Shown here: piece by piece, positions 5,657-50,765 of the stretch
How the letters are laid out: every line of letters starts with the position of its first letter
Position numbering within the stretch: position 1 is the stretch's first letter
Assembly (NCBI RefSeq): GCF_006345805.1
Contig: NC_043013.1
Location: 7,750,001-7,814,000 of the forward strand
DNA length: 64,000 nucleotides
Source: Octopus sinensis
Lineage: Eukaryota
Direction of reading: 5' to 3'
Translations under genes and position numbers: made by a program
The notes under the pieces: model-generated
Database searches by the model: none
What the model was told of the DNA's origin: nothing
Seen by the model: the letters and a program-made list of their open reading frames with translations, nothing else

Positions 5657-6510
5657 TGCACAAGTATACCTTGAAAATGTCTCACTAATAGCCTGTATAT
5701 GTGTGTGTCTGTGTTTGTTCCCCACCACTAATTGACAGTCGGTGTTGATGTGTTTGCATCCCTGTGACCTAGCAGTTCAGCAAAAGAGACTGATAGAATA
5801 AGTACCCGGCTTTACAAAAAAAAAAAAAAAATACCAATTATTGTGGTCAATTTGTTTGATTAAAAAACTCTTCAAGGCAGTGTCCCAGCATAGCCACAGT
5901 CTGACTGAAACAAGTAAAAGATACACACACACACATACGTCAAGTTTCCACACAGTTTCCGTCTACTAAATTCACTCAGAAAGTATTGGTTAGCTTGGGG
6001 CTCTAGTGAAGGTGCTTTGCCAAGGTGCTGCACAGTGGGACTAAACCCAGAAGTGAGCTGCTTAACCTCACAGTCATGCCTGTGCTTCAGTATTTATTAT
6101 TCCTGCAAAATAAGTTCCTAACTGCTGACCATTTTCTTTGAGATATTGTCAGACAGGTTACTTGCACCAATGGCCTACCATAGTATCTGTGCCACCTACA
6201 ATTCTTTTACTATATATTCCCAACAAGTGCTTACTTGATAGGAATAAATAAGGGACTTATTAACCCTTTAGTGTTCAGATTATTCAATCAAACATAATGC
6301 TTATTGATTCCCATTGATTTGAATTAATCATGCATTATCTCATATCTTCAAGATCTTGAGGGTGTAATTACTTAATGTAGAATAACATTGTAGGGTAGGT
6401 GTGAGGGCCTGGATCTGGTCAGTTTGAACATAAAACAGATTAACTATTTTGGCCGGATATGGCCAGTTTAAATACTAAAGGGTTAAGTCTGAACTGTATA
6501 TCTGTTAGTG

Positions 6511-6845
6511 AAAGCACATGGCTCAGTGGTTAGAGCTTCGGGCTCCCAATCATGAGGTAGTGAGTTCGATTCCCAGACTGGGCTATGTGTTGTGTTTTAA
6601 GCAAGACACTTTATTTCATGTTTGCTCCAGTTCACTCAGCTGTAGAAATGAGTTGCACACAGGTGCCAAACTGTATCAGCTTTTGCTTTTTCCTGAGATA
6701 ATATGAGTGTCGTGGAGAAGGGAAGCTGGTATGCATGGGTGACTGCAGGTCTTCCGTAAACAACCTTGCCTGGACTTGTGTCTCAGAGGGTAACTTTCTC
6801 GGTGCAATCCCATAGTTGTTCATGACCGAAGGGGGGTCTTTACCC
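6511..6845 (+). mobile_element. tRNA-derived SINE, additional family
   Basis: A box tggctcagtggttag and B box gttcgattcc; related heads at 8403, 35545, 35826-36128 (-) and 44785-45150 (-). Confidence 0.75.
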
Positions 6846-6974
6846 ATGTGGTCTTGGGTCCAGTCTCACTACACAGCACCTTGGACAAGCATTTTCTACT
6901 ACAACCTTAGACTGACCAAAGCTTTCTGAGTAGATTTGGTTGACAAAAACTGAAAGAATTCACAGCTCTGGGTG

Positions 6975-7235
6975 AGGGATGTGATTAGAATGTCACAGAA
7001 AAGATTTGCCAATACCAAATCTTCAGTCCAAGCCAACCAACTGGAGACACTAGGGGTAGACCAAGAACAGAATGGGTGGATAATATCTATAATCTCAGTT
7101 GGTCATGCTTAGGAATCCAGCCAAAAAGTGTAATGATGGCTGCTTCTGATAGAACCCCATGAGGACGTGTCTGAGGACTCTACCCTCACAACCCTCCCAT
7201 CCATTTATCTCTCCCAAGGCAGAGATGGCTGGATG
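6975..7235 (+). mobile_element. Degenerate RTE-like LINE 3' fragment
   Basis: Interrupted reading GRPRTEWVDNI...AASDR resembles RTE C-termini. Confidence 0.5.
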
Positions 7236-10200
7236 AAAACAGGTGAATCAATAACAGGAAGGGTGTCTAACTATAGAAAATCTACCTCAACAAATTCAAT
7301 TTCATTCATCCAAGCATGGAAAAATGGTTATTAAAGATGATGTGTATAGACTAGTATAGAAATAGTAGAAGTAATTGTAATTAGTATGGTTTGATGATAG
7401 TGTTCCCACACAACCATCAGTTTACTATGTATTAACCCTTTTGATACCAACTCACCTGAGAGCACACCTGGTTCTTTGTTACAAACTTTCTGATTTAAAA
7501 TTATTAAAGTTAAAAATGTTACATCAAAATTTCAAGCACCATGTTAATAATTAGTTATTTAACAAAATTTTTTATTCATTTCCAAATGAATTGAAACAAA
7601 GGCATTGTATTTCGGCAGACATCTGGTGACAAAAAGGTTAATTAGCACAGACTGGCTTCTGGAATATCGAAGTTGCTGAGCCTTTGGGCACTTCTCAAGT
7701 ATTTGATTAACTTTTTAGTCTGTATCCAATCAATTAACTGAGACTTTTTCAGTAATCACAAAAACAGTAGTAACAAACCAATGAGAGAGCCTGTATGCAG
7801 TCATTCAACATGCTAGAAATGTCAACCAAGTCTCCTTCAAATCACATCTGACCATCTTAAAAATGAAACTACTCATTGGATAGTGTAGTCAAACCATATA
7901 TAGGCATGGTTATGTGGTTAAAAAGCTCGCTTTGCAACCATGTGGATTTGAGTTCAATTCCATTATGCAACACCTTTGGCAAATGTCTTCTAATAATAAA
8001 CAGAAATGGTATGGAAGCCTCAGTGTCTGTTTGTCACTCTCTCTCTCCCAACACCTGTTGACAACTAGTGTTGTTTATGTCCCTATGACTTAGCAGTTTG
8101 GCAAAAGAGTCTGATAGAATAAGTAAGTACTAAACTTTAAAAATGCATGTACTGAGGTTCATCTGTTCATCTGTTCATCTAAAACCTTTCAAGTCAGTAA
8201 TGCCCCAGCATGGTCACAGTCCAATGACTGAAACAAATAAGAGATAAATGAAAGGTGGAAAAAAAAAGTGGCATAACCAAGGCTAGGGTGACAGTGATCA
8301 TAGGCATACAAGATCAGTTTGACCTGGGGCTAAACAGCAGCAGGAACAAAAAAATTGTTAAGTTTAAATATGTAACGCAAGTTATCATAAGGTGTAACTA
8401 GTGGAGGGACGTGGCTTAGTGGTTAGGGTGTTGATGAGGGTATTGAACTCGTGATCATAAGATTGTGGTTTCGATTCCTGGACCAGGCAACACGTTGTGT
8501 TCTTGAGCAAAACACTTCATTTCACATTGCTCCAGTCCACTCAGCTGGCAAAAGTGAGTAACGCTGCGATGGACTAGCATCCCATCTGTCAGCATTATCA
8601 TCATCGTTTAATGTCTGTTTTTCATGCTGGCATGGGTTCGACGGTTTGACTGAGGACTGGCAAGCCAGTAAGCTGCACCAGGCTCCAATCTGATCTGGCA
8701 AGGTTTCTACACCTGGATACCCTTCCTAACACCAACCACTCCGAGAGTGTAGTGGGTGCTTTTTACATGACACCGGCATAGGAGCCAGTTAGGGGAGCAC
8801 TGGTTTCAACCATATTCAGAAGGTGCTTTTCACATGTCACGGGCACAGAAGCCAGTCAGGGGCACTGGCATCAACCATGTTCAGATGGTGCCTTTTACAT
8901 GCCACTGGCACGGGAGCCAGTCAAGGAGCACTGGCTTTCTTTGACCATGTTCAGAAGGTGATTTTTACATGTCACCAGTATGGGACCCAGTCAGAAGAAG
9001 CTGGCATTGACCACATTCAGAAGGTGCTTTTTATGTGTCACCAGCATGGGGAACCAGGTGGGGAATGGAAACCATGGAAACCAGCCCTTATGAGTTGGTA
9101 TGACTCATAGAAACCATGGAAACCAGCACCTATGAGTTGGTATGACTAGAGAAAAAAAAACTTTATATATTTATTTCTTTTTATCGAATAAACTAGAATC
9201 CGGTAAGGTCAAGTCAATAAACTTAGATACTGTTGTAGAACTATTTACAAAGAGACTAACTTACTGACTTCAGTGTCAACTATTCAAATCTTTCTATTTG
9301 CTTTGTGTTGCTATTCTTTTATTCTTTTACTTGTTTCAGTCATTTGACTGTGGCCATGCTGGAGCACCACCTGTAGTCGAGAAAATCAACCCCAGGACTT
9401 ATTCTTTTATTTTATCGTATTGGTCTCTTTTGCCAAACCACTAAGTTACGCGGCCATGAACACACTAGGATCGGTTGTCAAGTGATGTTGGGGGCACAGA
9501 CACTCAAACATATACACATACACACACACACACACACATATATCTATATATGACAGGCTTCTTTCAGTTGCCATCTACCAAATCCACTCACAAGGCTTTG
9601 GACAGCCCGAGGCTATAGAAGAAGACACTTACTCAAGGTGCCATGTGGCTTGTAAGCAAGCTACTTACCACACAGCCACTAGTTTTTTTGTTTTTGTTTT
9701 TATTTAAGTTTACTAGTCTATCGGTACAGGGGCTGTGTGGTGGTGGTTGTTAAGAAGCTTGATTTGCAACCACATGGTTTCAGGTTCAGTCCCACTGCAC
9801 AGCACATTGGGCAAGTGTCTTCTCCCATAACTCCAGACTGATCAATGCCTTGTAAATAAATCTGGTAAATGGAAACTGTGTGGAAGCCCATCATGTGTGT
9901 ATCTTTGTGTTTGTTACCCCACTAAATTACAACCAGAGTTGGTTTGTTTGCATCCTCTTAGTTTAGCATTTTGGCAAAAGAGACCAAAAGAAAAAGTATT
10001 TAAAAAAATAAGCACTGGGGTTGATTTGTTTGAGTAAACCATTCAAGACGGTGTTCCAGCATGGCCACTGTCCAATGACAGAAACAAGTAGAAAACAAAA
10101 AACAAAGGTAACTTGATTAATAGATACTTAAACCAATTAATGGTGAACGTGAAGTAACACAATACAAAACTTGATCCGACAACTTTCATAATGATTTAGG

Positions 10201-13030: not shown

Positions 13031-14164
13031 AATAATTCATGCATTAAATATTTATAGGTGCAGGAGTGGCTGTGTGGTAAGAAGTTTGCTTCACAACCAC
13101 ATGGTTCCAGGTTCAGTCTCACTATGTGGCACCTTGGGCAAGTGTCTTCTATTATAGCCTCAGGCTGACTGAACCGTTGTGAGTGGATCTGGTGTATGGA
13201 AACTGAAAGAAGCCCATCGTGTATATATATATATGTGTGTGCATATATGTTTTTGTGCCTCTGTTTGTTCCCCCACTATCGCTTGGCTACCGATGTCCCC
13301 CATAACTTAGCAGTTCAGCAAAAGCGCTAGACTTACAAAGAATAAGTCCTGGAGTCAATTTCTTTGACTAAAGGCGATGCTCCAGCATGGCTGCAGTCAG
13401 ATGACTGAAATATGTAAAAAACAATAATAAAAAGAATCTATTCTGCAAGCATTAAAACTGGTTTATGTAATCGTGGCTTCTGTAAGAAGTCATATGTACA
13501 AAACAAAGAAAACAGACTCTGTCACATGGGTCATTAAATAAGCAACAAAGATAAAGAAATTATGATAATTCTTTTGAATAACAGTGAATAAAACAATACT
13601 TAATAATAGCTAAAGTATTTGATCATTAAAATTTATGTGATAGAGGTTACTGCGTTGCCCTGGGATGGAAAAATTAAGTGATAATCTTTTTTATCTTGTA
13701 AGAAATGAGTCGCGTGAAGATTAAGAAATTTTAGAGGTTGAATGAAGGAGAAAGTATGAAAAATCATCATCGTCATCATCATCATCATCATGTTAATGTC
13801 TGCATGGGTGGTTTTGAAGTTTATTGAAACAGGTTTTCGATGACTGCATGCCTTTCCTGTCACCAACTCTCACCTGCTTTCAATTAAGGTAGTAATGTTT
13901 CTGCATGATATTGGAAATAAATAACACTGCTTGTATGATGGTGATGCTCATTTACAACTATCGTGTGATGTCAAGACACAAACCCACACATGCATGCTAC
14001 ATGTACATACATGCGTGCATGCATATATATATATATTGGCCTGCTCGCTTAGCCAGCAGGGTGGCATCATTTGAAGGCTAAAACATTGTGAAGTGCATTG
14101 TGACCAGCAATATGTAGCAACATCTGATAGCCTGGTCGGTCACGGTGATCATGATGATATATAT

Positions 14165-14339
14165 ATACCCAAACAAAATTTAGAGGAACGATGTCTAAGT
14201 TTAGCATAAAGGGGTTGTCCACTTTAGTGGTCAGTCCTCTAAATTTTGTATGTAACACAATTTTTAATCTTTGGATCTTTTAAATATGCTAAGCCACTGG
14301 TTTTAATTGATTAATATCAATTTCTACCCTTATTATCTA

Positions 14340-14386
<47 letters not shown>

Positions 14387-14600
14387 GTATTTCATTTATA
14401 TCTCGCGTATTTGCCGCTGAAGAGGGGAAAATTTCTTATGAATTAACCCCGAAATTGGACCAATACGGTAATAACGAATTTTTTAGAGATTTCTATCGGT
14501 TTGTTTTGAGACGCATAAATTATAATGGTTATCAACAAAAATTTTTTGTTTAGGCATATTTGGCATTAGAATTTTTCTTCTGCCCTTATCTTGTAAATAT
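14165..14600. mobile_element. Probable Penelope-like element remnant between (TA)n tracts
   Basis: Carries the hammerhead motif and is bounded/interrupted by (TA)n; 14190-14330 is similar to 60090-60220, which also follows a (TA)n tract. Confidence 0.45.
14408..14473 (+). ncRNA. Type I hammerhead ribozyme motif
   Basis: UUGCCG-CUGAAGA-GGGG(19 nt)CCCC-GAAA-UUGG-A-CCAA-UA-CGGUAA: all core nucleotides plus stems I, II and III present; predicted cleavage after AUA at 14465. Confidence 0.78.
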
Positions 14601-14619
14601 ATATATATATATATATATA

Positions 14620-14992
14620 CTAGCAGTATCGCCCGGCGTTGCTCAGGTTTGTAAGGGAAATAACTATAAAGCATTTTTAGAGAGTTATAGCCAAAAAAAA
14701 TGGAAAAAAATGATGGTAAATTTTTTTTTAGTTAAAAAAGGTGGAGTTGCGTCCCCTAGACAGTTTGCGGTTTGTGTCTCTAATTCTCGACCCCATGTCG
14801 AATTTATCGATTTTTTTCAGAACTGGGGGAACTTTTCAAAATTTTCGCTGCGTTAGTTTTGAATTATGACATTGGGCTATGTGTGTGTCAAGTTTCATCA
14901 GAATCGGTTGAAAGCCGTGGTCAGGGTGAGGGTACAAGCAAACAGACACACAGAAACACGCACAGACAAACTGCCGTTTATATAGAGAGAGA
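14620..14992 (-). mobile_element. Non-autonomous Helitron
   Basis: TC...hairpin...CTAG termini on - strand; shares a ~200-bp segment with 24623-25054. Confidence 0.75.
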
Positions 14993-15984
14993 TATATATA
15001 TATATATATACATGCACACACACACAAGAATGCATGTATGTACATATAACAAGTTTCTTTCAGTTTCTATATAGCTAATCTGCTCACAAGACTTTGGTTA
15101 ACCTGAGGCTATAGCAGAAAACACTTATCCAAGATGCCATGCAGTAGGACTGAACCTGAAACGGTGTGGTTGGGAAGCAATCTCCTTTATCACATAACTA
15201 CACCTGCACCTGGTTTGGTTAGTAAGGACTAAATGGAAAACTATATCAAGTTTAGTTTTCAATACTGTCTGAAACAGAACAACTGATTGGTTCATTTGAA
15301 ATATTTTTATGCTCTTTGCTTTCAAATGAATATAATGTAAAATGCTCTATTGTGTCTGGGGAGAGTCATTTTCTTTTTGTGCCTTATTATGTAACACACT
15401 CACCAGTAAAATTTCCACGTTTTTCTTATTTTACCGGTGAGTGTGTTACATACAAGCACCAACAATTTGAACTTTTTGAAAGTCCAATAGATCTGTCACT
15501 TTAATGAATTTTAATTACCTTTTTTTGATGATATTTGAAAAGAAACAGCAATTTTAGCAAAACACATTAAGCAATACTAATAATAAATCAAAAAATGTAA
15601 AAATAAACAAGCTTTTGATGGTTTTATAGATATTTCAAAATTATGATGCTAGGTGTTTCCATTGTTTTGTCCAACCCCTATAAATATTAAATAGAGCCTG
15701 AGTGAGAAGTGAAAGTAGAGGAGATAAATGGCAAAGAGTGCATCGTATGAATGAGAAAGGAAGGGGTGATAGATAAATAACAAAGGAAGGGGTGAAAAAG
15801 CCGATAAACCGTGTTTGAAGTGTGAGTATATGTGTGTGTAAAAGAGAAGTATGTTTGCATGCGTGTGTGTGTATAGTAGAAATGAAATAATGTTCAACGC
15901 TGAAAATGTGTGAGTATATGTATGTGTGTGCGTGTACAAGAGAACTATGTAAAACTTTACATATAAGGTAAAGAAAATATTAAA

Positions 15985-16176
15985 AAATAATCCAGAATCC
16001 TTGTCTGGTAGGTGATCGATCCCAAAATCTAATCAGTTCATGTCAGTCACAAGGCCAAACATTTCTGAAAGTTTTGTTAAAAATCTATTCAGTGGTTCTT
16101 GAGATATCTTGTCCATGGACAGGCAAACAGATGCAACTGAAAACAATACCTCCGCCTTCGCTAAGGTGGAAGTAAC
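15985..16176 (-). mobile_element. Helentron/DINE-like short interspersed element
   Basis: Terminal hairpin ttacttccacctt..aaggcggaggta followed by a ctgt-rich tract on - strand. Confidence 0.45.
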
Positions 16177-16387
16177 AAGTAACTTTATATAATAGAACCT
16201 AAAGCAGTTTGATACCAAGGACACTGTTTGTCTGTTTTGTTTTGTTTTTTAGCCTAGAGCAATTGATGCAATTTGTATCAGTGATTTTGTGTGTTGTTGT
16301 CTTGTAGAAAAATTGCTTGAAATTGATAAATTTTAGAGCTATACTTAATTTAATATTTTTTTTTTTTTTTTCCATTTGATTTTTCAG

Positions 16388-16449
16388 AGACTAAATGGGT
16401 ACATACACCTGAATCCCTCTTGCAGGGCCATATAGCATATAATGTCAAG
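16388..16449 (+). CDS. GULP1: CED-6/GULP1 PTB-domain engulfment adaptor, first visible coding exon (TKWVHTPESLLQGHIAYNVK)
   Basis: Polypyrimidine tract + ttttcag acceptor; aag|gtaagt donor. Peptide matches the GULP1 N-terminus as I recall it ([20 protein letters not shown]). Starts in phase 1, so the ATG exon lies upstream. Confidence 0.9.
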
Positions 16450-16539
16450 GTAAGTTCCTTGTTGTTGTTGTGGTCATTGTCGTCGTGTGTGTGTGTGTAA
16501 GTGTGGCAGATGTATTTATACGTGTGGGTGTGATGTGTG

Positions 16540-16582
<43 letters not shown>

Positions 16583-16984
16583 ATCCTAACAATAATGGAT
16601 ATTAAAATGGTAGATGAAATATCACTTCTATTTTGTCTTCTAACTTTGCCATTGAAGAATTAATTCTTAGAACATTTAAAAAAAAATTTGTCAACATTTC
16701 TATCAGCATTCCCCTCACCAGGACCTGCTTCACATGTTCCCTTGTTGGTTGCGCAGGGCTGCTGACCCTACACCTACTACCCTCCTGTTGTCTCATCCAG
16801 GTTTGGAACCAGCAATTACAGAGTTAGTTATCTCACAGACTTTATAGATAAAATTTGAAAGCATTAAGCTTGTCATATCTTTCTGAAAGAAAAAAAAAAA
16901 TAACATTAAGATTATAACTTTTTTTTATTTTGTCACATCAGTCTCATCTTTAGATACTGAAATATAAATGTAAATATTTTTAAA

Positions 16985-50200: not shown

Positions 50201-50465
50201 AAAGAATTTTTGATTTTTAATTCTTTTAAACATCTGACTTCGGTCATGCTGGAGCACTGCCTTGTAGTGTCAGTGTTAGTCAAATAAACTGATTCCAGTA
50301 CTTATTTTAAAGTCTAGCATTTATTCCATCAGTCTCTTTAACCAAACTATTAACCCTTTTGTTACCATATTTCTGTTGAGATGCTCTATGTTTCTGTCAA
50401 TTAATTTTAAATATAACAAAGAATTTAGTAAAATAACTTAGTTATCATTAAGCTAGTGATAGGAA

Positions 50466-50765
50466 GTGCCATCCAACCAAAATGCAAATATATGGGAAAC
50501 TACCACCTGTGTCATCTCTTGTGAAAGGTAGGAGAGTCCAGTTTGCTGGACATTGTTGTAGAGCTGAAAACAAGGTAATTTCTACTCTTCTCCTCTGGAA
50601 GCCATCTGCTCGCAATACCAGAGGGCGCACACTCTCCTACCCTGATGTAATCTCCAGGGATACAGGCATCCAGCAACAGGACCTCTGTAATGCCATGATG
50701 GACCGTGAAGTCTGGCGTAGCATGGTAAATTCCATTGTCTCGACCACGGTCAAACAATGATGATG
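50466..50765 (+). mobile_element. 5'-truncated RTE-clade LINE 3' end inserted in a piggyBac-type MITE
   Basis: ORF 50482-50760 (RRVQFAGHCCR...RGR...MDREVWR) is a typical RTE C-terminus; (TGA)n tail; 11-bp TSD AGTGATAGGAA. Confidence 0.85.

Follow-up and report, generated by a model that had tools for sequence, protein, structure and literature searches.

A type I hammerhead ribozyme motif in a GULP1 intron of Octopus sinensis belongs to a truncated dispersed repeat, a probable non-LTR retrozyme

Introduction

A hammerhead ribozyme motif lying sense to GULP1/CED-6 in the genome of Octopus sinensis raises the question of whether it acts on the transcript of that gene or is a passenger within it. 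The DNA analysed (the window) was a stretch of 64,000 nucleotides, and positions given without a contig are those of the window. A preliminary description of its sequence had placed the motif probably in an intron, had related it to Penelope-like elements (PLEs) and retrozymes and had suggested that co-transcriptional self-cleavage could affect splicing or transcript ends.

Results

The hammerhead motif

A descriptor search of both strands of the 64-kb window returned a single full-consensus type I hammerhead motif, located at 14411-14471 on the plus strand, in which the core CUGANGA, GAAA and NUH are linked by three helices with helix I open, as defines type I. Stem I (14411-14416/14466-14471; 6 bp, one of them G-U) is followed by the catalytic core CUGAAGA (14417-14423), by stem II (14424-14427/14447-14450; 4 bp), which is extended through an internal loop by a small covarying hairpin (14431-14443) inside the 19-nt loop 2, by the GAAA core (14451-14454) and by the palindromic stem III AUUGG-A-CCAAU (14454-14464; 4 bp with a GAC loop). 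Cleavage is predicted from the hammerhead consensus after A14465 (14465/14466). Past stem I, beyond an internal loop, is a short outer helix (14406-14407/14475-14476) that also covaries. The coordinates previously assigned to the core, stems, GAAA and cut site all agreed with the letters and with the descriptor search, and the earlier view of a type I hammerhead with a palindromic stem III suited to dimer cleavage was borne out by the descriptor and by folding predictions. No stable hairpin was predicted for stem III alone, and a self-duplex was predicted at -8.9 kcal/mol. This fits the dimer mode, which has been shown in axolotl repeats (PMC7229834) and described for a helix III that is short and palindromic (PMC4209133).

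In 60 windows simulated with a second-order Markov model as a control for chance, loose descriptor matches averaged 0.05 per window and strict matches were found in 0/60. Comparison with the Rfam hammerhead models, a check suggested in the preliminary description, gave no match either at gathering score over the window or at E<=10 over 14000-15000. The stability of the 81-nt stretch around the motif was ordinary (z -0.87 versus shuffles), and the minimum free energy structure of the isolated stretch differed from the active fold in that the core was paired into stem III.

The window copy and the dispersed repeat

The motif is contained in a 212-bp, plus-strand truncated copy (14387-14598) of a repeat unit of ~470 nt, corresponding to unit positions ~168-380. 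This copy lies between target (TA)n sequences, a microsatellite on the left (14346-14390) and a shorter run on the right (14599-14620); it is without the 5' ~165 nt of the unit and ends at the "short" of two 3' end classes, without the ~80-nt tail. Neither a second unit nor a second ribozyme copy was found in the 64-kb window. The 221 bp around the motif gave 53 matches of 91-100% identity, and a further similarity search gave 88, with identities of 84-100% over the two (40 candidates scored in each); the first-look candidate counts of 1,939 and 2,774 are not copy numbers. Other copies extended the unit to its full ~470 nt, which is non-coding.

Exact matches across the genome numbered 359 for a 20-mer of the window ribozyme, 583 for a 22-mer of a sister subfamily and 1,215 for a shared upstream 20-mer, while a shared tail 21-mer had 3,814 matches with at most one mismatch; all are counts of matches rather than of insertions, and every reversed-sequence control was zero. 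Mean divergence from the column majority was 3.4% among 91 aligned pieces from the top BLAST loci, and the window copy departed from the majority at 7 of 228 positions, none of them in the ribozyme. The lower substitution rate in the core (10/736) than elsewhere (803/23,242), counted among top BLAST matches, is only a hint.

The surrounding DNA (13800-16200) is mostly covered by repeats. A different and far commoner repeat occupies 14621-14990, its first letters being CTAG directly beyond the right TA flank and its end a TA/GA run; we take it to resemble non-autonomous Helitron-type elements. Elsewhere in the window, a 102-aa open frame (50452-50760) gives the impression of the end of a LINE reverse-transcriptase ORF.

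Covariation between subfamilies

The sister subfamily, which is ~72% alike over the whole unit, carries a homologous hammerhead. Covariation was assessed in an alignment of the window copy with 24 of 30 loci chosen by an upstream motif outside the ribozyme; five of the six loci that were dropped were truncated or rearranged within the motif and one was an inverted twin, and three pairs in the alignment are halves of one insertion. The named structure was paired in 92.2% of 498 cells, as opposed to 27-42% when slid. Double changes, 6-9 at each, were noted at seven base pairs across all three stems and their extensions (one each in stem I, stem III and the outer extension of stem I, and two each in stem II and the loop 2 hairpin), which is the stem covariation among genomic homologues by which the preliminary description had proposed to judge the motif. 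Two of five covariation measures were not above shuffles (92/500 and 456/500), and only three or four splits between subfamilies account for the double changes. RNAalifold recovered stems I and II with eight double-change pairs and did not recover stem III. The changes on both sides of seven pairs suggest that the hammerhead fold has therefore likely been selected, or maintained, in a mobile-element lineage, and the covariation reflects selection on the mobile family rather than on the GULP1 locus. The usually conserved G10.1-C11.1 pair is A-U in 15 of the 25 aligned sequences (sister subfamily, L113-L142), and loop 3 is longer by one base in a third subfamily.

Layout and ends of insertions

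Insertion layout was examined in 126 distinct loci obtained from 180 fetched by merging those with shared 40-mers, one merge uniting two near-identical loci on different contigs. Outward-facing inverted pairs were found at 66 loci, a single-strand layout at 58 and other layouts at 2, and a head-to-tail junction was present in 38 of the 126. Long tandem arrays were absent from the loci examined, the longest of which (L033) comprised ~2.6 units with three cut sites spaced 513 and 468 nt.

Insertions ended at two preferred 3' end classes ~80 nt apart. Both ends were classifiable in 46 of the 66 inverted loci, and these included 44 short with long, 2 long with long and 0 short with short (binomial P 1.4e-11); the remaining 20 inverted loci had an end elsewhere. 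The motifs by which the samples were chosen differed, and one lay within the tail, a choice that favours long ends and does not force the pairing. Outer ends entered a TA tract of at least 8 nt in 31 of 35 cases from 24 genome-order loci versus 12.9% of random flank positions. Partial tandems, inverted pairs, ends in TA runs and a one-ended tail of ~80 nt are PLE signatures, and the kinship with PLEs and retrozymes proposed earlier was borne out.

The monomer between cut sites in L033 is 468 nt long with 31% GC and gave a z of -2.4 when folded as a circle; a sister unit folded likewise gave -4.8. Contigs of four sequencing runs, guessed to be RNA, covered the unit piecewise, strand, ends and circles not being readable from contigs, and two joints in them at which the sequence goes back along the unit are as expected from a tandem reference. 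A donor-like GTAAGT site upstream of the ribozyme (unit positions ~160-172) is conserved in all subfamilies and falls just beyond the left end of the window copy, and both main subfamilies have an AG where tandem units join. Within a tandem transcript of the element itself, the ribozyme may be intronic.

The host intron and folding within it

A GULP1/CED-6 coding exon, identified by protein homology at 16388-16450 on the plus strand, is 100% identical to PTB-domain engulfment adapter protein 1 of Octopus and Argonauta. One such protein, mapped exon by exon to C17, has coding exons before the window starts, at 7566120 and 7731504, contrary to a gene start downstream of 14475, which would have spoken against an intronic motif. 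The upstream exon sought in the preliminary description was found at G000:C17:7731510-7731597 by protein homology, from which the gene structure given here comes. This preceding coding exon ends at a GTAAGT donor, and its leftover base completes a Gln codon with the first two bases of the exon at 16388. The ribozyme therefore lies sense within a GULP1 intron of 34,790 nt, its cut site 1,922 nt 5' of the acceptor, and the previously suggested intronic position ~1.9 kb upstream of the acceptor is upheld by the upstream coding exon and the reading-frame join.

Predicted probabilities of stem I, which are equilibrium values without tertiary contacts or Mg2+, were 0.53-0.58 in full units, 0.37-0.41 when 14387-14480 was folded alone and 0.01-0.14 for the window copy with its intron flanks. 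With a single ribozyme copy, and with this last value set against that of full units, the window copy is therefore left with no partner ribozyme and is predicted to have lost the context for its folding as well. Contigs of four sequencing runs compared with 13600-16700 were swamped by repeats, and none spanned the insertion site.

The proposed effect on GULP1 splicing or transcript ends did not gain support. The motif is the column majority of the sampled copies and one of hundreds that are near-identical, the window holds no second ribozyme, and stem I is predicted to form in the intron only 1-14% of the time. As a truncated copy of a repeat with hundreds of near-identical genomic copies, the window copy is probably a passenger rather than a GULP1 switch, and a role in GULP1 is unlikely because of the single ribozyme, its weak stem III and the misfolding predicted in the intron.

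Search for a partner element

Elements with a reverse transcriptase (RT), a CxxxxCxxC linker and, at the C-terminus, a GIY-YIG domain are abundant in the genome, have (TA)n ends and in some cases are 98% identical to each other; they are called Neptune-type here from this layout alone, which Neptune or Nematis clades share. The unit was not the element's own 3' end at any of 80 GIY-YIG-type loci (30 + 20 + 30, a few of them SLX1-like or unrelated), a small part of the thousands of candidates, and eight element 3' ends aligned to two units gave no significant similarity (best p 0.08). A PLE-type ORF was found within 1.5 kb of only 4 of the 126 repeat loci, always in opposite orientation and tail-to-tail across a TA run. 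The four loci with a Neptune-type ORF, and L248, were rejected as partners, being mere neighbours across a shared TA run; L203 was rejected since the unit there sits in a duplicated flank and is not the element's own end.

Locus L203 (G000:C1:207472000-207481500) contains a Neptune-type element whose open frame (RT and GIY-YIG) is 781 aa long and which is flanked by a direct repeat of 1,676 bp at 99.3% identity (L203:484-2153 and 6417-8091). The direct repeat includes the element's own terminal repeat and flanking DNA downstream, a retrozyme unit of the sister subfamily and one further repeat, and looks like the product of either 3' transduction, in which the element copies DNA lying downstream of it, or local duplication.

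Discussion

We consider it highly probable that a ~470-nt repeat, likely a non-LTR retrozyme (a non-autonomous PLE), gave rise to the truncated copy between (TA)n runs to which the hammerhead belongs, and that this copy inserted into a GULP1 intron with probably no consequence for the gene. The family is likely mobilised by Neptune-type elements. In the mechanism proposed, tandem copies would be transcribed, two ribozymes would pair through the palindromic stem III and excise a 468-nt monomer, and the monomer may be circularised. A Penelope-type RT/GIY-YIG protein, probably of Neptune type, would nick TA-rich DNA and the RNA would be copied from two internal start sites. We infer that each target strand is primed from a different one, and inverted, one-tailed insertions would follow from this use of one start site per strand. 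The window copy would be a short one-strand product of the inner start site, with no partner ribozyme and a predicted misfold.

On sequence grounds, the ribozyme motif is real. A chance match in AT-rich repeat DNA would accord with the Rfam result and with the fold z of -0.87, but strict matches were absent from 60 simulated windows and the core has been retained while stems changed on both sides between subfamilies ~72% alike, which leaves this reading next to no probability. It is unlikely, though less so, that the unit amounts to no more than the pseudo-LTR of an autonomous PLE family outside our sample, its copies being insertions of this family truncated on the 5' side and no small RNA propagating independently. 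Partial tandems, inversions, a one-sided tail and a hammerhead are all pseudo-LTR features (PMC8557442); the conserved GTAAGT site has a counterpart in the donor-like site of neighbouring Neptune-type terminal repeats, and only 80 of thousands of GIY-YIG candidates were read. Against this, the head-to-tail junctions (38/126 loci) join unit end to unit start with no ORF, and the four nearby PLE-type ORFs are all in opposite orientation across a TA run.

Recruitment by the host, whereby co-transcriptional cleavage in the 34.8-kb intron would alter GULP1 splicing or create transcript ends as proposed for amniote intronic hammerheads, is in our judgement very unlikely. The motif is sense and intronic with an intact core, and all 7 departures from the column majority over 228 positions lie outside it; however, copies of the family are only ~3% divergent and an intact 61-nt motif therefore needs no selection at the locus. 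Moreover, the ribozyme is alone, its stem III has a probability of at most 0.1, the flanking intron is predicted to out-compete stem I, and intronic copies are common in Xenopus, where they make up 42-44% of retrozymes (bioRxiv 10.64898/2026.07.22.740005). The RECK and C10orf118 hammerheads of amniotes are likewise sense and intronic but are isolated motifs (PMC10761166, PMC7229834), whereas the octopus motif is one of hundreds of young dispersed copies; an isolated motif of the RECK type was rejected for this reason.

The preferred reading of the family as a non-LTR retrozyme can be compared with published systems. Its units are short, AT-rich and non-coding, with one type I hammerhead each and no PLE ORF inside, and head-to-tail copies with two consecutive ribozymes occur in the family (L033); the window copy has one ribozyme and thus falls short of the two units of an active retrozyme. 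Animal non-LTR retrozymes (Cervera and de la Pena 2020, PMC7229834; Li, Clavereau and Pollet 2026, bioRxiv 10.64898/2026.07.22.740005) likewise combine a type I hammerhead with a short non-coding unit rich in AT, occur head to tail, have a predicted self-paired circular fold and coexist with PLEs, and the archetypal loop 1-loop 2 nucleotides are lacking in a mussel retrozyme family (350-390 nt), as they may be in the octopus unit. Li, Clavereau and Pollet argue that repeats of this kind derive from PLE pseudo-LTRs. These structural parallels suggest that the octopus family would work like an animal non-LTR retrozyme, with a putative circular RNA. The octopus unit, at 468 nt, is slightly above the 150-450 bp reported for animal non-LTR retrozymes in these sources, and its copies are mostly dispersed insertions of 0.5-2.6 units with inversions as opposed to long arrays.

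Craig et al. 2021 (PMC8557442) described PLEs with partial tandems, an inverted 5'-truncated copy, (TA)n targets and a 30-40-bp tail, often at one end only. With PLEs and pseudo-LTRs of the Neptune clade (PMC8557442; PMC11167929) the octopus unit shares partial tandems, the inverted truncated copy, the one-ended tail, (TA)n targets and the hammerhead, but it is without an ORF, its tail is ~80 nt rather than 30-40 nt, and it has no sequence link to any sampled autonomous family. An anole protein studied by Frangieh et al. 2024 (PMC11167929) is a predicted dimer that cleaves AT-rich DNA on both strands and begins to copy from two internal sites delimiting the tail, to which the two preferred ends of the octopus unit correspond; the ribozyme was dispensable for insertion in vitro. 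In minimal PLE hammerheads (Cervera and de la Pena 2014, PMC4209133), a palindromic helix III fit for dimers and compensatory changes are found as in the octopus motif, whereas helices I (6 bp) and II (4 bp) of the latter are of canonical size, its helix III is longer and its sister subfamily has the A-U replacement of G10.1-C11.1.

A more far-reaching proposal, tentative and in our opinion somewhat doubtful, is that of a cephalopod retrozyme family whose self-cleaved 468-nt circular RNA would hijack Neptune-type proteins in trans without shared sequence. The short/long pairing (44/46) would then be the trace left in the genome by a protein dimer that primes each of the two target strands from a different RNA start site, the sites being 80 nt apart, and host pre-mRNAs might be nicked by intact sense copies in introns, including that of the window.

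No description of an octopus hammerhead repeat was found in literature on octopus or cephalopod ribozymes and on octopus Penelope/Neptune elements (the supplement of PMC7229834 may list cephalopod repeats), nor is octopus mentioned in the main text of bioRxiv 10.64898/2026.07.22.740005. The locus itself is ordinary, a truncated mobile repeat within a long intron. The value of the family is modest and lies in its being a small, young, covariation-backed substrate for studying the role of the hammerhead in Penelope-type mobility and the origin of the one-sided tail. If an effect on GULP1 were shown, it would mean that a retrozyme ribozyme acts on a host pre-mRNA in an invertebrate; nothing here indicates such an effect.

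The 6-bp stem I and 4-bp stem III of the unit also distinguish its ribozyme from minimal motifs of local Neptune-type elements. Abundant Neptune-type families carry, ~70-110 nt before the TA-bound end, a hammerhead-like motif with a covarying stem II and a palindromic stem III, in which UUGAUAA replaces CUGANGA and the core is off consensus (L203:6853-6887, L029:1130-1170 and the 3' ends of L079 and L082). In another Neptune-type family (3' regions of L066, L095 and L112), a minimal hammerhead combines the canonical CUGAAGA core with the palindrome GUAC in its stem III. The minus strand of L066 (oriented position 2621) carries a separate motif resembling a canonical type I hammerhead, with a 7-bp stem I and a long loop 2; its 3' part recurs in the flank of L030 and may belong to yet another repeat family.
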